A DNA stretch of 64,000 nt. Origin: a virus. The translations under genes and the position numbers were made by a program. Below are positions 8,485-64,000 of the stretch, in pieces (the first letter of the stretch is position 1; each line of letters starts with the position of its first letter). The stretch lies in the UHGV virus genome UHGV-0198106; one strand, written 5' to 3'. A model generated the notes under the pieces. That model saw nothing but the letters and a program-made list of their open reading frames with translations, searched no databases and was not told where the DNA came from.

Positions 8485-9453
8485 ATGGGTGCTGGTGGCT
8501 TTCGTAAGAATACCGGAAGAAACAACACAACACAACCTTATAGTGTGGGCTTTCTAAACACCTCTGAGAGTGTAGAAACTAATAACGTTGCAATATATGA
8601 TGAACTCCAGAATATTAGTACTGCAACTAATCAAATGTTCCAAGCTATAGATGAAATCCATGAGGAGATTGATGTTCGTATTAAAGCCCTTCATGCTATG
8701 AATTTGCAATTCGATGAACTAGAGAACCGTGTTACGACAGAGATTGAGACTGCCATTGCAGATATCATAACACAAATGGGTAATCTATCCACCGATGATA
8801 TTTGGGATAATTCGGTTAGCCCTCCTGTCAAATTGGATTCAACTATGTCTGGTATTAAGACTTCAATAGAAGGCAATACGGCATCTATTCAAACTGTTGA
8901 AGGTATCGTCAATGATCAAGGACAAGAGATTGCCCTTATTCAATCTGATTTAACGAATGGGACAGGTAGTGCTTCTCAGTATATGAAACTAACTGAGTAT
9001 GAAGCTACTTGGGGTGTTAATTCCACAGTAAATGGTAAGACAGCAGGGGTAAAGTTAACAAACAATGGATCTATAAGCCAATTCCAAGTAACAGCTGATA
9101 AGTTTGTGGTATCTGATGGCACATCAGGAAGTACACCATTCAAGGTTGAGAACGGTAGGGCTGTTATGGAGTTTGCTGACATTACTAACGTAGTTATCAC
9201 CTCTGCTCAAATTGCAACTGCGACTATTGAGTGGGGACAGATTACTAATGTATCAATAACCAACGCTCAGATCCAAAGTCTATCAGCGGATAAAATAACA
9301 GCCGGTACAATGTCAGGGACTAACTGGAGATTCACCGTTGGTGGTGATTTTGTTATGGGTGGTACAGGTGGGGCACAGTTGTGGATGAATGGAAACAGAA
9401 TAGACTTCTACGATGGAAGTGGTGCTCTGAGAATTAGAATAGGGAGTTGGTAA
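8485..9453 (+). CDS. virion structural protein (fibre-like)
   Basis: TAAGGAGG then ATG; internal short repeats (ITNVVITSAQI / ITNVSITNAQI); Gly-rich C-terminus. Confidence 0.45.
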   Translation: MGAGGFRKNTGRNNTTQPYSVGFLNTSESVETNNVAIYDELQNISTATNQMFQAIDEIHEEIDVRIKALHAMNLQFDELENRVTTEIETAIADIITQMGNLSTDDIWDNSVSPPVKLDSTMSGIKTSIEGNTASIQTVEGIVNDQGQEIALIQSDLTNGTGSASQYMKLTEYEATWGVNSTVNGKTAGVKLTNNGSISQFQVTADKFVVSDGTSGSTPFKVENGRAVMEFADITNVVITSAQIATATIEWGQITNVSITNAQIQSLSADKITAGTMSGTNWRFTVGGDFVMGGTGGAQLWMNGNRIDFYDGSGALRIRIGSW

Positions 9454-15017: not shown

Positions 15018-15026
15018 TAATGTATA
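15018..15026 (+). promoter_or_regulatory. TAATGTATA motif upstream of the 1,435-aa gene (candidate phage-specific promoter element)
   Basis: Exact 9-mer ~40 nt upstream of the start codon; the same 9-mer recurs at 23543-23551 and as reverse complement at 23471-23479. Confidence 0.3.
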
Positions 15027-15064
15027 TAGGGGGTAGGACATTTTTATTTATAAAAGGAGACGTT

Positions 15065-18000
15065 ATGGCTAACATTAAACCGTGGGAAGAAGCTTCCAAA
15101 GCTCCTGCGTATCTGAATGCCTCTCCGGAGCGTCAAGCTCAAATGAGAGAACAATATAAGGCAGCAGGTGGCTCTATTCCTGAGGAACAACCAGTAGCAC
15201 AACCACAACAAGAAGAACGTGGTGCTATAGGTGAGTTTGCTCAAGGTGTGTCAAATGCTCTTCAATCTGGTGGTGCAAATATCTCTGCTAATCTTGCTAG
15301 AGGTATTGGAGGCTTAGTTGAGATTGGTGAAGATCTAACTGGAGCACAAACTGGTTACGGGAAGCGTATGCAAGAGAACGCTCAAAACCTCTTGAAAGAA
15401 CGTATGGATAAGATTGAGGATGGGATTGGTAAGTCTGCTGGTCAGTATGCTGGGGTGGTTGCCGACATTGGTCTGACAGTTGCTAACCCATTAGCTGCCG
15501 CTGCTATCATTGCAGGTCGTGAGACCGGTCGTGCATATGCAGACCAAACCCCTAAAGAGGGGGAAGATAAGTCTGTTCTAGATGCAGCCCTAGTTGGTGG
15601 TGCTAACTATGCAGCTCAAAGAATCCTTCCGGGTGCTGTTGGGACAGCTGAATCAGCTCTTGGTCGTATCGGTCAGAACGTTGCTAGTAACGCAGTGGCT
15701 GGTGCTAAAGGTGGTGCTCTTGTTGGTGCTGCTGAGGTTCAGAACAAATATGGTGATGACAATGATCTAGCTAAGACATTGGAAGGTGTTATAGAAGAAG
15801 GGGCTATGGGTGCTGCATTTGGTGGCGCAGTTGGTGGAGTTCATGGTTTGATTAGCCGTCCGGATTCTGCTGTCTTCAAGAACACTCCAGAGTATGCGAA
15901 GACTGATATTGCTGCTGATGACGAACTGATTCGTAGTGCTAAAAATATTGATGAATTGAAAGAAGCTTACTCTAAAGCTGAAACTGCTAACGCTGCTTCT
16001 GCTCTGAATCTTCTGGATGAGAATGGATTCCGTATTACAGATGCTGTTGCTGTAGATTCTCCTGCTGCTCAGCGTATTCTTAATACTGACCAAGCTCGTG
16101 CTGAGAAAGCTGCTTCTGTTCAGAAAGAACATTCCAATATTCCTGGCCTTAATCCTTTAGCTTCTCCTGCTAAGACTCGTGGTAAAGCTTTCGCTGATAA
16201 TGAGCACAACCAGAAACAGGCTGTTGCTATGAAGGATGCGATGGCTGACTACACCAAAGACAACACGAAAGCTCTTACAGATGTTCTAGATAACCTAGAC
16301 CGTGAATTAACTTCTCTCCGAGCTTCTGGTGATTTTACTGGTAGTCCGATTGATATTAAGAATCGTACACAAGCTGACCGTGATTTCATTGATGCTTACA
16401 AGACTTTCTACAATGAAGCAAATCGATTCAAAGCTCGTGAAGGTGAAGATTTTAATAACTTTGTAGAGAAAGCTACTGAACTACAGAAGATGGCTGATAA
16501 TGTTTCTCCAGAGATGAAGAAAGCTATCGGTGGGTTGAAGAAACTGAAAGGTATGCCTGAAGGTTTTAATCCTATCCAAGATGCTTACACTCTGAACAAT
16601 ACGGCTAAGTTCATGAGCAACCAAGATCGTGGCTGGACTTCCCTGACTGATGATGGCTTCCGTGAGGCTTCTTCTCCTAGTCTGGTAATGAATACTCTCG
16701 GTGCTGCTAAATATGCTCTGAATCGCTTCTCTTCTCAGCGTGCTCGCTCTCAACGTGTTAAGCAACAAGAATCTAACAGTGAAGCTATCCGCTCTTTAGC
16801 TCGTGGTGATTTGGAAGTTGCTCGTGCTAAATCTACTGCTGATGAAGCTCGGGCTAAGATGGAAGAAGAACCAGTTGTTGATGACATTAAATTTAAGACT
16901 CAAAATGATGTGGAAACCGAACCGGTTCGGGAGCCTTCTTCTAGTACTGTGACGGAAGAAAATCTTCCTTCCTCTGCTCCTCAAGAAACCCCTCTTACGG
17001 CTCGTGATTTAGTTGCTCAAAGACGCGCAGTTAAACAGGCAGAACAACGTCGTGCTCAAGAAGAGGCCGCACAGGCTCCAGAACCAACTGTAGAGGAACC
17101 AACAGTCAAAGCTGAGCCATTACCTGCCCGTGCTCCTAAAGCTCCTAAGGAAGCTGTACAGGACGTTAAACCGGCAAGTGGTGTAGAACGTTTAGCTGCT
17201 ATGTCTAGTGCTGCTCGTCAGGCTACTAAAGATCGTGCAGAACGTTTTGCTCGTTCTCTGTACTCTAAAGCTGCTAAGGCTAAAGCTACTGCTGAAAACT
17301 TCTTGGCTTATAAAGGTGACCCTAAGGAATTGATGCGTCGCATTCGTCAGGAAGATAATGCTATCAACACTGAACGTCATGAAGAAATGGCTCGTAACCA
17401 GCTAGCTTCTCAGCAAGGTATTGCTACTGCTAAGAACAACACTGTACGAACTAATTTTGCTGAATGGGTTAAGGAACGTGGTCTACCAGAAGACATTGCT
17501 ACTAAGGCATTACGTGCTGAGGAGAAAGGTTTAGGTGGGAACGTGACTAACTTGGATAGTCTGAAACGTCGTGCTGAAAGATTGTATCAGAAGCAGCGTG
17601 AGGATGAGTTTGATAGGTTGTATCAACAAGCTCTAGAAGAGAACAAAGCTTTTGATAGGAAAGATGCTCCTAAACTGGTTGACCAGAAGAAAGAGCTTCA
17701 GTCTGAGATTGATGCTTTGATTGATTCAGAACCTTTACGTCCTGCTCAGAAAGATGCTATGCGTAAGTTGATGAATGACTTTGTAGATGGGAAGTTTAAA
17801 TCTTCAGAGAAGGCTGGTAGGGAGGAGGCTTTGGAAGTTGGTCAGATGAAGGATATTTGGGATGGGTTTATTAACACCTATAACAGAGAAGTGAATGCCT
17901 TCAATAAAGCTAACAAAAACTCTCAGTACGAAGCTTTTGCTAAACACATACAAGCTCGTGAAGAACGTCTTGCTACTCTGAAAAACAAAGCTCAGGCTCG

Positions 18001-19372
18001 TTCAGATGCTAAGGCTGCTGTTGAGAATGAACGTAAAACTCTAGAGGCTATTGCAGCTCAGAAGAGTGAGATTGAGAAGATGATGGAAGGTTTACCTAAA
18101 CCTGTTCGTGAGGCTCAGGAATCTCGTACATTGAAACAGTTGGCTGCTCACCACGATAAGAACTCTCCAGTTCCTCCAGAGAAGTTCCGTAGTTACATTG
18201 AACGTATCCATAACGCCGAGTCAGATTACCTTGATCGTCAGCGTCGTTTAACTGATGCAGAGGAAGATGCTCGTCAGGCTAAGTGGAACAGGATGTATGA
18301 GCAAGCGGAAGAAATGAACCGTAAGTTTGATGTGGACAAGAGAGTTAAGCGCAGTGAAGAGCTTAAAGCGGCCCAAGAGCGTGAGAATGATCTTATGGCA
18401 GTACAACGTCAACGTGATGATATTCATCGCCGCCTGATGCGTACTATGGAAGATAAGGGCATATCTAGAGAGGATGCTGAAGCATTTGCTGGTTCCTATA
18501 TGGATAACCGTTATGCACTTCTTGAGAAGCCTATGACTCCGACTGAGCATCAGAATGCTCGTTCTCGTATCGAGGCTGATGTTGAGAAGTTTGCTAAGAA
18601 GTACGAATCAATGACTCCTATCGAGAAAGAGATTGTTAAGGTTACTGGAGATACTGAAGGTAAGCTTGATAACTTGGATGCGGATACTAGGAAGGCTGTT
18701 GAGGAGGCTCAGAAGGTTGACTCTGATATTAAGAAACTGCAAGAGGAAGAGTTGGAGATGGAGAAGGTTCGTTCTGCTCTGCCTGACGATGAAAGATCTC
18801 AAGCAAGTTCCGATATCTTGGAAAGTATCAAACAACAGGAAGAAGCCTTTGCTGATAAAGCAGAGAAAGCTTTCTTAAATGGGAAGAGCTTAGATGAGTT
18901 AGTCAGTGTGGCTGAAGTTTTAGACAGGGTTCATGGTGCTGACAAGGCTGGTAACAACCGTCGCTTTGTACGTGCATTGCAGACTGCTGCTGAAAACAAG
19001 AAGAAGTATGGTGATAATCCAGTAGCTTGGTTTAGTGCTGATGATTATTCTGCCATTGCTAAACTTGGTGCTTCTTCCGCAGGTGGTAACAAATCCAGAG
19101 CACTGGAGAAGATCTTTGGTTCTACAGCTGAACAGGCTAAGAGTAAGTTGCTTGGCAGGGATGATGTAGCGAAGATGAGACGCGTGATTGAAGAGAACCC
19201 TGATATTAAGATTCCTTCTTACAAGACAACGAATCGTACTGAGTACTTACAGTTCTTGGAGAAGTTTAATGACGAAGGGAAGCCGAAGATTAAACGTGGC
19301 TCATTGTCAGAGAAGCTTGAACGCAGTAAGCGTCAATCGAGACTCCGTGTAAGAGTTCGACCTAAGGAGTGA
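15065..19372 (+). CDS. large alpha-helical virion protein (internal/ejection-type candidate)
   Basis: Track ORF 15020..19372 trimmed to ATG 15065, which follows AAGGAG at 15054-15059; 1,435 aa, highly charged Ala/Glu/Lys/Arg-rich coiled-coil-type sequence. Confidence 0.55.
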   Translation: MANIKPWEEASKAPAYLNASPERQAQMREQYKAAGGSIPEEQPVAQPQQEERGAIGEFAQGVSNALQSGGANISANLARGIGGLVEIGEDLTGAQTGYGKRMQENAQNLLKERMDKIEDGIGKSAGQYAGVVADIGLTVANPLAAAAIIAGRETGRAYADQTPKEGEDKSVLDAALVGGANYAAQRILPGAVGTAESALGRIGQNVASNAVAGAKGGALVGAAEVQNKYGDDNDLAKTLEGVIEEGAMGAAFGGAVGGVHGLISRPDSAVFKNTPEYAKTDIAADDELIRSAKNIDELKEAYSKAETANAASALNLLDENGFRITDAVAVDSPAAQRILNTDQARAEKAASVQKEHSNIPGLNPLASPAKTRGKAFADNEHNQKQAVAMKDAMADYTKDNTKALTDVLDNLDRELTSLRASGDFTGSPIDIKNRTQADRDFIDAYKTFYNEANRFKAREGEDFNNFVEKATELQKMADNVSPEMKKAIGGLKKLKGMPEGFNPIQDAYTLNNTAKFMSNQDRGWTSLTDDGFREASSPSLVMNTLGAAKYALNRFSSQRARSQRVKQQESNSEAIRSLARGDLEVARAKSTADEARAKMEEEPVVDDIKFKTQNDVETEPVREPSSSTVTEENLPSSAPQETPLTARDLVAQRRAVKQAEQRRAQEEAAQAPEPTVEEPTVKAEPLPARAPKAPKEAVQDVKPASGVERLAAMSSAARQATKDRAERFARSLYSKAAKAKATAENFLAYKGDPKELMRRIRQEDNAINTERHEEMARNQLASQQGIATAKNNTVRTNFAEWVKERGLPEDIATKALRAEEKGLGGNVTNLDSLKRRAERLYQKQREDEFDRLYQQALEENKAFDRKDAPKLVDQKKELQSEIDALIDSEPLRPAQKDAMRKLMNDFVDGKFKSSEKAGREEALEVGQMKDIWDGFINTYNREVNAFNKANKNSQYEAFAKHIQAREERLATLKNKAQARSDAKAAVENERKTLEAIAAQKSEIEKMMEGLPKPVREAQESRTLKQLAAHHDKNSPVPPEKFRSYIERIHNAESDYLDRQRRLTDAEEDARQAKWNRMYEQAEEMNRKFDVDKRVKRSEELKAAQERENDLMAVQRQRDDIHRRLMRTMEDKGISREDAEAFAGSYMDNRYALLEKPMTPTEHQNARSRIEADVEKFAKKYESMTPIEKEIVKVTGDTEGKLDNLDADTRKAVEEAQKVDSDIKKLQEEELEMEKVRSALPDDERSQASSDILESIKQQEEAFADKAEKAFLNGKSLDELVSVAEVLDRVHGADKAGNNRRFVRALQTAAENKKKYGDNPVAWFSADDYSAIAKLGASSAGGNKSRALEKIFGSTAEQAKSKLLGRDDVAKMRRVIEENPDIKIPSYKTTNRTEYLQFLEKFNDEGKPKIKRGSLSEKLERSKRQSRLRVRVRPKE

Positions 19373-27575: not shown

Positions 27576-27893
27576 TTATGATGAGCTTAAAGCTCCTTTG
27601 CGAGATCCAGCTGCTTTTCCAGCTCGATCACCACTTTTGCCGCCGTTTGAACGGTTTGAGCTGACTGATTCAACACGTAAGTTGCTTGACGCATTAGAGC
27701 CTCCAGACTTGACAGCTCGTTTGTGTCCAACGTCTTTACCTCTGACAGCAGCTTTTCCATCGCGCTTTTCAACGATGCGACGTGCACGGTGGCGCTGAGC
27801 ATCTCCGCTCTTGCTCCCAACGCCTGTTTCACCACGGGCAATTGCGGTACGTCTTTCTTGTGCATAATCTCTCTTTCCTACATGGTCTGCCAT
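27576..27893 (-). CDS. basic Gly/Lys/Arg-rich small protein
   Basis: AAGGAG then ATG; an alternative fully overlapping frame (27587..27865) also has a plausible RBS. Confidence 0.45.
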   Translation of the reverse strand: MADHVGKRDYAQERRTAIARGETGVGSKSGDAQRHRARRIVEKRDGKAAVRGKDVGHKRAVKSGGSNASSNLRVESVSSNRSNGGKSGDRAGKAAGSRKGALSSS

Positions 27894-47885: not shown

Positions 47886-48119
47886 TTACTCACCTTTCTT
47901 GGTACGGTCTTTGGCAGTTTTGCCAGTGCGGATGCGATGAGAAACGTTAACCAGAGTGCCACCATCAACTACGGTAACGCTCTTGTTTTTAGCCAGATCG
48001 AACACAGTTTTCTCTGTGCCACCCAAGCGAATTTGCTTAGATTCGCTGAAGGTTTGGGTTGATTTGGATTGGAACTGGAACGGTTGACGGATTGCATCAA
48101 TTGCACTTACTTTAGACAT
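47886..48119 (-). CDS. hypothetical protein
   Basis: Track ORF, 77 aa; AAGGAA upstream of ATG. Confidence 0.4.
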   Translation of the reverse strand: MSKVSAIDAIRQPFQFQSKSTQTFSESKQIRLGGTEKTVFDLAKNKSVTVVDGGTLVNVSHRIRTGKTAKDRTKKGE

Positions 48120-48270
48120 AGGGGAAATTCCTTAAAAATTATGGCTGCGTAGAGGGAATTCCCTACGCAAATTGGGCCGCCTAAAAAGAGGCGTCATAGT
48201 ACTAAAAGGAGGAGAGAAGAGGGCTTATTTAGCTACCTTTTTCTGTCCGTTTACGAACCGAATAATTACG

Positions 48271-48516
48271 CTACTCCTGAACCACTGACATGCGAATCAT
48301 TTCCACCTGAGTATCAGCACCTTTAGCACATAAGACCCCTGTGAGAAGATTTACCACAGTAATCCAACCGTTAACTACACTAATATTGCTAGAAGTGTTT
48401 TCAACTCTCATGTAATATTGAGGAGATGCTGAGCCACGTTGAATTACGAATGGGTTTCCGGGAATGATAGTAGACAAGGAAACAGTATTATCTTTAATCT
48501 TGGGAATGATCTTCAC
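48271..48516 (-). CDS. hypothetical protein
   Basis: Track ORF, 81 aa. Confidence 0.4.
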   Translation of the reverse strand: MKIIPKIKDNTVSLSTIIPGNPFVIQRGSASPQYYMRVENTSSNISVVNGWITVVNLLTGVLCAKGADTQVEMIRMSVVQE

Positions 48517-50464: not shown

Positions 50465-50568
50465 AAGAGCTCTTAGCGAGGGTGACAGGACTCGAACCTG
50501 CATACTCCATTTACTTCTTTAACGACCGCTTAGAAGGCGGGGAAGATACACCCTCACTAAGAGCTCTC
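50465..50568 (-). other. structured element: 20-bp inverted repeat enclosing tRNA-like T-arm and anticodon-like hairpin
   Basis: Arms aagagctcttagcgagggtg / caccctcactaagagctctc; on the minus strand GCAGGTTCGAGTCCTGT (T-arm-like) and CCGC-CTTCTAA-GCGG (UCU anticodon-like loop); no canonical D-arm, so not called as tRNA. Confidence 0.3.
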
Positions 50569-52311: not shown

Positions 52312-52701
52312 TTATTCCCTAGAGCTGTTATCGAACACTAAATCACCACAATACATAGGATTGGCATACCATTTTGGCACCCCTTCGCTCTTACTCTGAA
52401 AGTAAGTCCCACTGTACAGCGGAACATAATTCTTCTTAAGGGCACGTTTAGCTAGCCGCTCGCTTTCTCCAATGGCTTGCTTAGTCATCGGATTTTTATC
52501 ACGAATCAGCTTTACATAACGTTTATAAGGTTTCTCCTGTTTTAATAGTACCGGAATCCACTCAAACTGGTTCTTTTGTCTTATCACCTGTTCAGCGGTC
52601 AGTTTTCGTTGGGCCATTCTATTTATCACGGTATCCGCAACCATAGCTTTACATGCGGTTGGCTGATTCCCTGCCTCATAATAAATAGTCAATGTCAACA
52701 T
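52312..52701 (-). CDS. SleB-type cell wall hydrolase (Hydrolase_2 family)
   Basis: TIYYEAGNQPTACKAMVADTVINRMAQ ... QFEWIP matches the SleB-family conserved core. Confidence 0.6.
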   Translation of the reverse strand: MLTLTIYYEAGNQPTACKAMVADTVINRMAQRKLTAEQVIRQKNQFEWIPVLLKQEKPYKRYVKLIRDKNPMTKQAIGESERLAKRALKKNYVPLYSGTYFQSKSEGVPKWYANPMYCGDLVFDNSSRE

Positions 52702-52941
52702 TAGCTGGGCCGTTGTTATCAGAACTTGCTACCTCCTATTCTACGGGTACAAAAAAGCCCCAGCCGTAGCCGGGGCAAACCTGAAAGCAACACATGACCG
52801 TTGCTATAAATACACTCGCAAATGCACTTACAGCAACGCAAAAAGCCGCTCAAAGGCGGCTATGCGGAAGCTTCAAATGGGGAGAGGGCACTACGCGACA
52901 GAGAGAGCGTCATAGTACTAAAAGAGGGGGCTATAGTCCTA

Positions 52942-53385
52942 CTATTTAACCCTTGCCTCTTTGATGGGGTCAATGTATTTTTCAACTCCCCACTTGTGTT
53001 TACTATCTGCGTAGAAAACATCAGGTGCGCACTGGCTTGTCTTAGGGAATGCTTGAGGGTCTTTCGTGCTACCCTTAAACTTCTGCTTACCACGGGTGCG
53101 ACCATTACAGAAGATTTCTAACTTCTTCTCCTCTTCTGTTTTAGCTCCCCCGCTCTGTAATAAAGAACGTTTATGATCGGCTAACAATAACGCATCAGCA
53201 CGATGAACACGATGGCCTACACGTTTTGCCACACTGGAAGGAGTATGGGATTCAGCCTCAGCCTTTGCAGCACGACGTTTTAAACTACGCTTACTGACGT
53301 GATTGGTTGCCTTTGGTTTCTCTTTCTCTAATTCAGAGATAGCAAAACAACGACCGCCCTTCATGCTGATTTTTGATTTAGCCAC
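52942..53385 (-). CDS. basic protein, possible nucleic-acid binding
   Basis: GTG start after AAGGAA; 147 aa, Lys/Arg-rich. Confidence 0.4.
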   Translation of the reverse strand: MAKSKISMKGGRCFAISELEKEKPKATNHVSKRSLKRRAAKAEAESHTPSSVAKRVGHRVHRADALLLADHKRSLLQSGGAKTEEEKKLEIFCNGRTRGKQKFKGSTKDPQAFPKTSQCAPDVFYADSKHKWGVEKYIDPIKEARVK

Positions 53386-61274: not shown

Positions 61275-62816
61275 ATGTCATTAGATAAACAAATTTATGA
61301 AGCTCTAACTGGTAACAACCTTAGTGTAGATGAAAAGAAAGCACTATTGAATATGTTGAAAGAGCGTGACCAATGGAGGAAGTATAATAGGATTTTGTCT
61401 TTCAAGGCGTATGACTTCCAAAAGAAATTTTATGCAGCAGGATTGAAGCATCGCTTTAGATTCTTGTGTGCAGCGAACCGTGTTGGTAAATCTTATAGCG
61501 AGGCATACGAGTTTGCTTGTCATGTCACAGGTCGCTACCCAACTTGGTGGACAGGATATAAATTTAAAAGACCTATCTTAGCATGGGCAGTTGGTATTAC
61601 AGGGGATTCCACAAGGAAAGTATTGCAAAAGGAATTGTTTGGTACACCTATCGGAAAGGATACAAATTTATTAGGGACAGGTGTCATTCCTCGTGATGCT
61701 ATCGTCATTGATACGATAGAACGAGATGGTAACAAACTTCAAATCGTACAAATCAAACATCAAAATGAGAGAGGAGAGTTTGACGGTTTAAGTACATTAG
61801 AATTCCGTTCAACCCAACAGGGTGAACACACATTGATGGGTGCAACAGTTGATTACATTTGGTTAGACGAAGAAGATCCATACGAGTCTATGGCTATATT
61901 CGCACAGTGCGTCACACGTACACTCACAACTAAAGGTCTAGTTACAATTACAGCTACACCAGAGAACGGTTTAACTGAACTGGTAGATAAATTTATGAAA
62001 GGTGAAGGAGATGAGAACACAGGTTCTCTATATTTCCAGAATGCTTCTTGGTGGGATGCTCATGCAGACCTAGGTGGACATATCACTGACCAAGATATAA
62101 AAGATATGACTGAAGGTATTCCAGCGTGGCAATTAGAGATGCGTTCAAAAGGTATGCCATTGTTAGGAAGTGGTTTGATTTACGATGTATCGGATGACAC
62201 AATTAAATGTGAACCATTCGAAATTCCTGATACGTGGAAACGTGTCTGTGCAATTGATATTGGTATTGATCACCCAACTGCTGCTGTTTGGACAGCTTAC
62301 GACGCAAACACGGATACTATCTATGTTTACGACTCATATAAAGAAGGTGGCTTTACTCCAGTGTATCATGCTCCAGCTATTAATGGTCGTGGTCAGTGGA
62401 TTCCTGTCATCCTACCGCATGATGCGGACAATATTGAGAAAGGTAGTGGTTCATCTGTTGCTCAATTCTATAAGAATGCAGGAGTTAACGTACAGAGTGA
62501 TACCTTCTACAACAAAATTGGAATGGATGGTAAAAAGAACTTCTTTGTAGAACCGGGAATCACAGATATCCGTGAAAGAATGATGAGTGGACGCTTTAAA
62601 ATCTTTAACACAGCCGCTAACGCTAAGCTATTCGAAGAGAAAGCTAGATATCACCGTAAGGTTGGTAAGATTATTAAAGAACATGATGACTTAATGGATG
62701 CAATGCGCTATTCAGCGTGCTCTGTTACACATCGTGGTCGCTCTAAGCATGATGTTAGCTACGGAAGCGCTTCTTTGTATGAGGCAAACGTAAGCAGATG
62801 GAATCAGAGCTACTAA
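61275..62816 (+). CDS. terL: terminase large subunit
   Basis: 513 aa; N-terminal ATPase region (AANRVGKSYSEAYEF), C-terminal nuclease-type region (VCAIDIGIDHPTAAVWTAYD); followed by portal gene. Confidence 0.8.
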   Translation: MSLDKQIYEALTGNNLSVDEKKALLNMLKERDQWRKYNRILSFKAYDFQKKFYAAGLKHRFRFLCAANRVGKSYSEAYEFACHVTGRYPTWWTGYKFKRPILAWAVGITGDSTRKVLQKELFGTPIGKDTNLLGTGVIPRDAIVIDTIERDGNKLQIVQIKHQNERGEFDGLSTLEFRSTQQGEHTLMGATVDYIWLDEEDPYESMAIFAQCVTRTLTTKGLVTITATPENGLTELVDKFMKGEGDENTGSLYFQNASWWDAHADLGGHITDQDIKDMTEGIPAWQLEMRSKGMPLLGSGLIYDVSDDTIKCEPFEIPDTWKRVCAIDIGIDHPTAAVWTAYDANTDTIYVYDSYKEGGFTPVYHAPAINGRGQWIPVILPHDADNIEKGSGSSVAQFYKNAGVNVQSDTFYNKIGMDGKKNFFVEPGITDIRERMMSGRFKIFNTAANAKLFEEKARYHRKVGKIIKEHDDLMDAMRYSACSVTHRGRSKHDVSYGSASLYEANVSRWNQSY

Positions 62817-62820
62817 AGTA

Positions 62821-62850
62821 AGGGGAGGTTTGTCCTCCCTTCTTTTATTT
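62821..62850 (+). terminator. rho-independent terminator / attenuator
   Basis: AGGGGAGG-tttgt-CCTCCCT followed by TCTTTTATTT. Confidence 0.75.
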
Positions 62851-62876
62851 AAGCTATCAACCGAGGGAGAGAATAG

Positions 62877-64000
62877 ATGGCTAAGCAAAAATATAGTGAA
62901 GAGGTGTTGGACGAGTTACGTGTTGACCTTCAACGTCGTTTTAATTACGCTCAAGGTTACGTTGACACGGCTGTTAAGGGCTATGCTCGTGAAGCTTGGG
63001 AATATTTCTATGGTAACTTACCTGCACCAGTAACTGCTGGCAGCTCTAGTTGGGTAGATCGTACTGTTTGGGAATCTGTTAACGGTACACTGCAAGATAT
63101 TATTAACGTATTCTGTTCTGGTGATGAAGCGGTTACTTTCGTAGCTGACAACCAACAGGATTCTGATGCTGCTGATGTAGCAACTAAATTAGTTAACCAA
63201 ATTCTTCTGCGTGACAATCCGGGATACAATATTATCTCTTCTGCTGCACAAGAATGCCTGGTTACTCGTAACTCTTTTATCAAATACTATTGGGATGAGC
63301 ACACTTCTACTCAAACTGAAGAAGCTGAAGGTGTACCACCGGAAGCATTGGCTGCATATGTTCAGGGACTAGAAGCTGGTGGACTTAAGAATCTGGAAAT
63401 CTTCACTGAAGAGAATGAAGATGGTACAGTAGATGTTAAAGTTACTTATGAACAAACTGTTAAACGTGTGAAAGTTGAATATGTTCCTTCAGAGCAAATC
63501 TTTGTTGATGAACATGCTACCTCTTTTGCAGATGCACAATACTTCTGTCATCGTGTACGTCGTTCTAAAGAAGATCTGGTTGCTATGGGCTTCCCTAAAG
63601 ATGAGATTGAAGCATTCAACGACTGGACAGACACGATGGATACCACTCAATCTACAGTTGCTTGGTCTCGTACTGACTGGCGTCAGGATATTGATGCTGA
63701 TATTGGCACAGATACCGAAGATATTGCTTCTATGGTTTGGGTTTATGAGCACTACATTCGTACAGGTGTTCTAGATAAGAATAAAGAGTCTAAACTCTAT
63801 CAGGTTATTCAAGCTGGTGAGCATATCCTTCACACTGAAGAAGTAACTCACATTCCGTTTGTAACCTTCTGCCCGTATCCGATTCCGGGTTCCTTCTATG
63901 GTCAATCAGTCTATGACATTACGAAAGATATTCAGGATTTACGTACCGCGTTAGTTCGTGGTTATATTGATAACGTCAACAATGCTAACTATGGTCGATA
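62877..64000 (+). CDS. portal protein (3' end beyond window)
   Basis: ATG 62877 after GAGGGAGAG; open frame to window end (not in track for lack of a stop); MAKQKYSEEVLDELRVDLQRRFNYAQGYVDTAVKGYAREAWEYFYGN...; position after terminase. Confidence 0.65.
   Translation, partial: MAKQKYSEEVLDELRVDLQRRFNYAQGYVDTAVKGYAREAWEYFYGNLPAPVTAGSSSWVDRTVWESVNGTLQDIINVFCSGDEAVTFVADNQQDSDAADVATKLVNQILLRDNPGYNIISSAAQECLVTRNSFIKYYWDEHTSTQTEEAEGVPPEALAAYVQGLEAGGLKNLEIFTEENEDGTVDVKVTYEQTVKRVKVEYVPSEQIFVDEHATSFADAQYFCHRVRRSKEDLVAMGFPKDEIEAFNDWTDTMDTTQSTVAWSRTDWRQDIDADIGTDTEDIASMVWVYEHYIRTGVLDKNKESKLYQVIQAGEHILHTEEVTHIPFVTFCPYPIPGSFYGQSVYDITKDIQDLRTALVRGYIDNVNNANYGR

Follow-up and report, generated by a model that had tools for sequence, protein, structure and literature searches.

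A repeated intergenic element of a phiEco32-like phage is a probable strand-specific nick site of the phage tf type

Packaged phage DNA can carry site-specific nicks, a phenomenon known for about 50 years from T5, the phiKMV-like phages and the tf-like phages. In the Pseudomonas putida phage tf, all 14 nicks were located by run-off sequencing of native DNA and two were confirmed by primer extension, with the consensus 5'-TACT/RTGMC-3' (Glukhov et al. 2012, PMC3517423). More than 90% of the tf virion DNA molecules are nicked, the nicks have 3'-OH and 5'-phosphate ends, and the fragments seen on denaturation vanish upon ligase treatment (PMC3517423). The same study gives TACTATGAC as the main predicted site in the phages LUZ24, PaP3 and MR299-2 (PMC3517423). 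According to the accessible text of a 2025 study, the Pseudomonas phage Rembedalsseter has 13 nicks detected by nanopore sequencing at WACTRTGAC, coverage of one strand drops to zero at the motifs, and the motif is enriched in 60 related Pseudomonas phages; that text assigns the motif neither a function nor a nickase (PMC11780129). We noticed that the tf nicks at 2102/2103, 5267/5268 and 20794/20795 lie directly before the annotated starts of tf_04, tf_15 and tf_41, so that at these sites the RTG of the motif is an ATG or GTG start codon.

We analyzed a stretch of 64,000 nucleotides from the virus genome UHGV-0198106 (hereafter the window). The 18-mer GCGTCATAGTACTAAAAG is found in the whole 64-kb window exactly at 48191-48208 and 52907-52924 on the plus strand, as the first-pass annotation had recorded, and dinucleotide shuffles gave on average only 0.02 matches to it with up to three mismatches. 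Both copies indeed lie in gaps between minus-strand genes, between ORFs 48271-48516 and 47886-48119 (site 1) and between ORFs 52942-53385 and 52312-52701 (site 2). We also recovered the two flanking features described earlier: on the plus strand, a small GC hairpin precedes each exact copy, overlapping the GCG end of the motif, and a purine run follows it. Read on the minus strand, which is the gene strand, the 18-mer is CTTTTAG-TACTATGAC-GC, and the purine run is a pyrimidine tract upstream of it. The 18-mer had been described as present twice, which is correct for exact copies but overlooked a third, diverged one: allowing up to three mismatches we found one extra copy, CTTCTAGTACTGTGACGG, at 16938-16955, in the opposite orientation (15 of 18 bases, plus strand). 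This copy is located within ORF 15020-19372, a large late gene that encodes a 1450-aa homolog of phiEco32 gp26. Each of the three copies reads in the sense direction of local transcription, the two exact ones on the minus strand and the third on the plus strand. The sites and their predicted nicks are as follows.

48191-48213, minus strand: site 1, extended element CCTCCTTTTAG-TACTATGAC-GC
48201 down to 48193, minus strand: site 1 core TACTATGAC, followed by G at 48192
between 48198 and 48197, minus strand: predicted nick at site 1, by analogy with tf TACT/RTGMC
52907-52929, minus strand: site 2, extended element CCCCTCTTTTAG-TACTATGAC-GC
52917 down to 52909, minus strand: site 2 core TACTATGAC
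between 52914 and 52913, minus strand: predicted nick at site 2, by the same analogy
16933-16955, plus strand: site 3, GCCTTCTTCTAG-TACTGTGAC-GG, within the late ORF 15020-19372
16945-16954, plus strand: site 3 core with the following G, TACTGTGACG; positions 16945-16953 are TACTGTGAC
between 16948 and 16949, plus strand: predicted nick at site 3, by the same analogy

The core of every copy fits the tf consensus 5'-TACTRTGMC-3', as TACTATGAC at 48193-48201 (-) and 52909-52917 (-) and as TACTGTGAC at 16945-16953 (+). Because the 18-mer carries TACTRTGAC, which is nicked in related Pseudomonas phages, it is most likely the target of a nicking enzyme. By this analogy, we give a probability of roughly 60% to the reading that the 18-mer is a tf-type strand-specific nick site, acting on the minus strand at both intergenic copies and on the plus strand at the third; Kuravirus DNA would then be nicked at these sites. 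The first-pass annotation had proposed a regulatory protein-binding site or a promoter element and had left the strand of action unknown. That the 18-mer is a protein recognition site is very likely, and the strand can now be assigned: at either site it is the minus strand that gives the asymmetric core.

In the window TACTRTGMC is not over-represented, with three copies versus about two expected in 64 kb (p = 0.31), nor do all sites lie on one strand as they do in tf (minus for two, plus for the third). With three copies at chance level, the case for nick sites is based on conservation and not on enrichment. A search of the accessible literature found no report of nicks in Kuravirus or phiEco32. 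The chance-level count of the 9-mer consensus in this genome is consistent with a repeat that has no function of its own, being left over from a duplication or gene conversion and matching the nick consensus by coincidence. We find this very improbable in view of the conservation of the core described below: it forms an island of identity in diverged intergenic DNA in three genera and is repeated in a coding region, its variation is limited to the R position, and in relatives the motif shows both enrichment and strand bias.

By sequence, the window can be assigned to a phiEco32-like Kuravirus. The motif region has ~90% identity to the genomes of phiEco32 and about 100 further Kuraviruses; a scan of IMG/VR with one 16-mer as an exact pattern returned mostly chance matches in unrelated contigs and found only three Kuravirus contigs. 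In phiEco32 the motif copies occupy the homologous gaps gp93/gp94 and gp119/gp120. Site 2 of phiEco32 is TAGTACTGTGAC, with one substitution (the R of the core is G instead of A), and the whole phiEco32 genome has exactly three core copies, at the same three sites. The first-pass annotation had suggested a motif search in relatives as a check, and such a search found the core at homologous sites in three genera. We compared the sites of phiEco32, Paul, NJ01, an IMG/VR Kuravirus, KBNP1711 (Nieuwekanaalvirus) and SU7 (Suseptimavirus), and TACTRTGACG was present at both intergenic sites in all of these genomes, which cover three genera of the Gordonclarkvirinae. All three sites are at homologous positions in the three genera and differ only at R.

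In a common register, the 19 sites that we aligned from Kuravirus, Nieuwekanaalvirus and Suseptimavirus all have TACT-R-TGACG; R is the sole variable core position and corresponds to the degenerate position of the published nick consensus. Position -2 is A in 18 of the 19 aligned sites, and positions -12 to -3 are nearly all pyrimidines, the coding site included. The alignment therefore points to an asymmetric element of ~22 nt, present three times per genome and composed of a pyrimidine tract, TAG and TACTRTGACG on the gene strand. The outer flanks of the intergenic sites have diverged or have been replaced outright between genera. At site 3, phiEco32, SU7, ECBP2 and KBNP1711 all retain TACTGTGACGG, even at four synonymous positions, although the DNA around it is only ~72% identical in the other genera.

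The 18-mer does contain the palindrome pointed out earlier, TAGTACTA, which is found at both intergenic sites in Kuravirus genomes and was first taken as the possible binding site of a regulator, that is, an operator for a dimeric phage or host protein. This palindrome is not conserved beyond the genus. Nieuwekanaalvirus and Suseptimavirus have AACTACTRTGACG at both sites, where TAG has changed to AAC upstream of the core, destroying TAGTACTA and retaining the asymmetric core. Because the palindrome is broken in these sister genera while the core is kept, TAGTACTA does not appear to be the functional unit. In addition, the R beside the palindrome has changed from A to G at site 2 of phiEco32 with the opposite flank unchanged, which gives no indication that symmetry is under constraint outside the 8-mer, and the copies in tf and in Salmonella phage 7-11 lack the palindrome. 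A palindromic operator is thus highly implausible, and that TACTRTGACG rather than the palindrome is the functional unit is in our view more certain than the nick itself.

The location of all three copies on the sense strand of local transcription would also suit a signal in transcription or RNA, such as a weak promoter for the host or phage sigma factor with TACTRT as a -10-like hexamer, an RNA processing site, or a termination or antitermination element working with the downstream hairpins. Both TACTAT and TACTGT retain A2 and T6 of the -10 hexamer. A sigma-70 promoter was rejected, as the scan was negative at both sites and TACTAT has, by eye, neither a TG extension nor a -35 element spaced 16-18 nt from it; the promoter part of the earlier interpretation was thereby lost. 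We also rejected a promoter for gp36. The accessible literature on phiEco32 places the gp36 consensus tAATGTAtA 6-8 nt ahead of the transcription start and locates these promoters upstream of genes 6, 13, 26, 40, 58 and 68. The phage sigma consensus is unmatched at our sites (4 of 9 positions in the best register, by eye), and its six promoters are elsewhere. Both motif gaps are absent from the published promoter lists of phiEco32 and SU10 in their accessible form, and the same literature describes leftward transcription of the early region, with the known early sigma-70 promoters close to the right end of the genome.

Both intergenic sites are followed by structured RNA, with fold z-scores of -2.27 at site 1 and -3.73 for 52800-52945 at site 2, and by terminator-like hairpins, which fit an RNA-level signal. 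We identified the following structures, all on the minus strand.

48178-48193, minus strand: small hairpin starting from the last base of the site 1 core, stem CGCCT/AGGCG with a 6-nt loop
48145-48170, minus strand: larger hairpin GCGTAGGGAATTCCCTCTACGC between site 1 and the next gene, terminator-like with a displaced T run
52757-52910, minus strand: structured region downstream of site 2, local context
52910-52893, minus strand: small hairpin of site 2
52861-52844, minus strand: intrinsic terminator of site 2, conserved in all three genera
about 52837-52800, minus strand: 17-bp hairpin of site 2
52776-52757, minus strand: second intrinsic terminator of site 2

The core's GAC(G)C end is the 5' arm of a hairpin of 4-6 bp with a pyrimidine loop at both intergenic sites. 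This hairpin is present in all three genera with differing partner sequences, and its stem uses GACGC at site 2 and in the other genera. A T run follows the small hairpin at site 1 of KBNP1711 and at site 2 of SU7, and the SU7 record has an annotated terminator that spans the site 2 motif. In the window the small hairpins that contain the motif lack a T run when tested as intrinsic terminators. Outside this subfamily the small hairpin is unlinked to the motif, and a role for it in the nick signal was rejected: stems that begin with GAC are no commoner at the sites of tf, 7-11 and LUZ24-like phages than at control TGAC sequences. The sites of tf and 7-11 likewise have no equivalent of the pyrimidine tract and downstream terminators seen at the two intergenic sites. 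Rfam contained no relevant match, and a known RNA family was dismissed. The third copy and most copies of 7-11 and tf are inside coding sequences, and the identical sequence in tf is a physical nick in DNA (PMC3517423). We regard a transcription or RNA signal as an unlikely explanation of the motif.

Two short ORFs begin at the ATG of the motif (21 aa, 48132-48197 (-), and 17 aa at site 2). We did not consider them genes because they lack a Shine-Dalgarno sequence and show no sequence conservation from one site to the other.

The surroundings of the sites have further features. The 240-nt gap after site 2 (52745-52945, minus strand) would give a densely structured transcript, which could be a small RNA or a regulated attenuator. 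Between 47500 and 54500 we counted 17 terminator-like hairpins, 13 on the minus strand, where shuffles gave 4.8; sigma-70-like sites were under-represented (7 versus 16.2 in shuffles). A tRNA gene is located between sites 1 and 2 (50477-50555, minus strand; Rfam tRNA, 30.2 bits) and corresponds to the tRNA-Arg annotated in phiEco32 and its relatives. The gene for the terminase large subunit (61275-62816) and the start of the portal gene follow the early region on the plus strand (61275-64000); the window therefore crosses the junction of the right and left genome ends, and its record is permuted relative to phiEco32.

Breakpoints of homology adjoin the sites in Paul, SU7 and the window. Together with the small number of sites, just three per genome, they are compatible with a nuclease target that is cut only transiently, initiating replication or recombination or producing mosaic junctions, the nick not persisting in packaged DNA; such a target would share its motif and its candidate enzyme with a persistent nick site. 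Mosaic junctions in intergenic DNA are, however, expected anyway, and persistence is the rule where it has been tested, as shown by the >90% nicked molecules of tf (PMC3517423) and, in the accessible text on Rembedalsseter, by the complete loss of coverage on one strand (PMC11780129). A cut that is transient is in our view quite improbable.

The junctions themselves differ between genomes. Site 1 of the window has a different upstream gene (48271-48516) and a remnant of ~45 nt of the 3' end of phiEco32 gp94 (48226-48273), Paul has an extra gene of 174 nt (8748-8921) directly 5' of site 2, and SU7 loses homology right after site 1 (~780-870). The hairpins and junctions at the sites could reflect a second role at the RNA level, recombination stimulated by nicks, or the ordinary behavior of intergenic DNA. 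Several Kuravirus GenBank records start within ~600 bp of site 2 (PE006 at ~113 bp, NJ01 at ~314 bp and MN03 at ~520 bp, as well as PGN6866), and we estimate that chance would place fewer than one so near. Assembly or coverage effects near a nick, or re-orientation of records to a common reference, could account for these starts.

Two other links were tried and rejected. The termini of phiEco32 and the borders of its terminal repeat are unlike the motif. A T7-type primase site (GTC on the complementary strand) would start primers 3 nt away from the nick, and the variant with M = C has no GTC.

Returning to the proposed nick sites, we compared the genes of the window with those of the phages that carry the motif. 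BLASTP of the ORFs against tf showed identities of ~38% for the DNA polymerase and ~46% for the primase/helicase. The window and tf also share 3'-5' and 5'-3' exonucleases, a set of ATP-grasp, glutamine amidotransferase, amidoligase and COOH-NH2 ligase proteins, and the terminase, portal and several virion proteins. In a tblastn ranking with the polymerase, LUZ24-like phages are the nearest after the 7-11-like phages. By these comparisons (BLASTP against the ORFs of tf and 7-11, and polymerase tblastn) the window has a replication module of the tf type.

Phage 7-11 has 13 copies of the motif, 12 on the minus strand, corresponding to leftward transcription, and one on the plus strand, and ~5.6 copies would be expected for the looser pattern starting with W. 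The lone plus-strand copy is in the rightward late region, as in the window. C precedes all 13 copies and G follows 12 of them, and most copies in 7-11 and tf are intragenic, within coding sequence.

To cover more lineages we surveyed 52 viral contigs anchored on the primase/helicase. The tf/LUZ24-like groups are strongly enriched for the motif near the gene, in a strand-specific manner, and LUZ24-like loci have 4-10 copies per 21 kb versus ~0.3 expected; loci with primase identities of 78-79% and 56% have 1-2 copies each, and those below ~36% are at background. The 20 loci that encode a protein of the phiEco32 gp58 type together have 63 copies, every one of them on the gene strand. The remaining 32 loci, without such a protein, have 9 copies on that strand and 3 on the opposite one, which is background. 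Proteus phage Privateer has two TACTRTGMC copies in its first 46 kb, both on the minus strand and with no clear extended consensus, and carries a homolog of the gp58-type protein with 52% identity. We also observed uncultivated IMG/VR phages (contigs of 82-90 kb) with primases 78-79% identical to that of the window, the gene for this HNH-like protein and 1-2 copies of ACTACTRTGAC near the primase; these phages appear to stand between the Gordonclarkvirinae and the 7-11-like phages. Conservation, shared machinery and the motif statistics in intermediate lineages argue that the resemblance to the tf nick consensus is meaningful.

The gp58-type protein of the window is our candidate for the nicking enzyme.

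27576-27893, minus strand: candidate nickase, HNH-like protein of 105 aa, proposed from conservation and co-occurrence with the motif

Its homologs are phiEco32 gp58, 7-11 gp068 and the protein of tf ORF 16129-16416 (+), and it is the best conserved of the proteins common to the window, tf and 7-11 (62% identity to tf, 59% to gp068). The tf ORF is in a different frame from the annotated tf_29 (16115-16429, with one transmembrane region); as the conserved HNH-like ORF is off the tf_29 frame, the annotation of tf at this locus is probably in the wrong frame. An alignment of the family shows an invariant N-terminal RGETGxGSKSGDAxRHxARR and the pattern DH...GG.N...NL...N; His57 is invariant. The length of ~100 aa and the DH...GG.N...NL...N signature are like those of small stand-alone HNH nucleases, such as the Gme HNH nicking endonuclease and McrA-type HNH domains. 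The invariant N-terminal RGETGVGSKSGDAQRHRARR segment has no known counterpart, and the gp58-type protein has no zinc-binding cysteines.

Database comparisons pointed in the same direction with weak scores. The window's own protein has no Pfam match above threshold, and its PHROG has no assigned function. Across the family, 25 of 32 members weakly match Pfam HNH (PF01844) at E <= 1 (best 0.0015), 13 of 32 match HNH_3 (best 7.5e-5), and some sources label members as HNH endonuclease or McrA. The AlphaFold model of the window's protein is of low confidence (pLDDT 64.8); a Foldseek search with it listed 27 structures, all at E > 1 and mostly HNH nucleases, among them the Gme HNH nicking endonuclease 4h9d. 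A profile search of the family against PDB sequences gave no match.

Of the 52 primase loci, exactly 20 matched the family profile at E <= 1e-41, and in this survey the gp58-type protein occurs only in lineages with motif enrichment. The distribution of the family, which 247 INPHARED genomes encode, corresponds to one phage supergroup, and its co-occurrence with the motif is therefore inseparable from shared ancestry. HNH nucleases leave 3'-OH and 5'-phosphate ends, and this end chemistry fits the ligatable nicks of tf. We tentatively propose on these grounds that the 27576-27893 protein could be the enzyme that makes the nicks, with the odds somewhat against it. The fuller proposal, in which the gp58-type mini-HNH protein is the TACT/RTGMC nickase and the phiEco32-like coliphages have a minimal version with three nicks, is speculative and we consider it doubtful.

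If the sites are nicked as in tf, the phiEco32-like phages would have inherited the nick system along with the replication module that is common to the tf/LUZ24-like phages. A phage enzyme, for which the small HNH-like protein 27576-27893 would be the best candidate, would break a single strand of the core, between T4 and R5, and leave 3'-OH and 5'-phosphate ends. Of the three cuts, those at 48198/48197 and 52914/52913 would be in the early region on the bottom strand, and that at 16948/16949 would be in a late gene on the top strand. We infer that such nicks have a biological purpose.

This explanation, if true, moves the nick question into a well-studied E. coli phage with three sites, an established transcription programme and established host genetics. 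The comparison of tf, 7-11 and Kuravirus narrows the search for the nickase to one small HNH-like protein. If this mini-HNH protein is the nickase, the enzyme and single sites could be removed one by one to learn the purpose of the nicks, two of the three being within the early gene region. Unrecognized nicks can also distort nanopore coverage, assembly break points and the calling of termini in these phages, which are candidates for therapy.

Among known systems, the nicks of T5/BF23 and of the phiKMV-like phages are, in the accessible descriptions, also strand-specific, sequence-associated interruptions in packaged DNA. Their consensuses, CGACxxxxxCCTA/CTCCGG in the phiKMV-like phages, are unrelated to the core described here, and both lineages are unrelated to the present one. 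The gp36 promoters are likewise short, conserved and of low copy number and occur in the same genomes, but they differ from the motif in sequence and position. The Rembedalsseter motif shares the core and, in the accessible text, is mostly on the coding strand; the survey in that text finds enrichment only within the Pseudomonas cluster and does not mention Kuravirus (PMC11780129), which, unlike this cluster, would not stand out by motif count. The 14 sites of the tf system are spread over 46 kb, mostly intragenic and confined to a single physical strand, whereas the predicted Kuravirus system has three sites in ~77 kb, on both physical strands and always in the sense orientation, two of the three being intergenic with an added pyrimidine tract and small hairpin. 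Both have the identical core in its two R variants, TACTATGAC and TACTGTGAC, both have G after the core (11 of the 14 tf sites and all sites of the window), and their replication, amidoligase and packaging genes are homologous.
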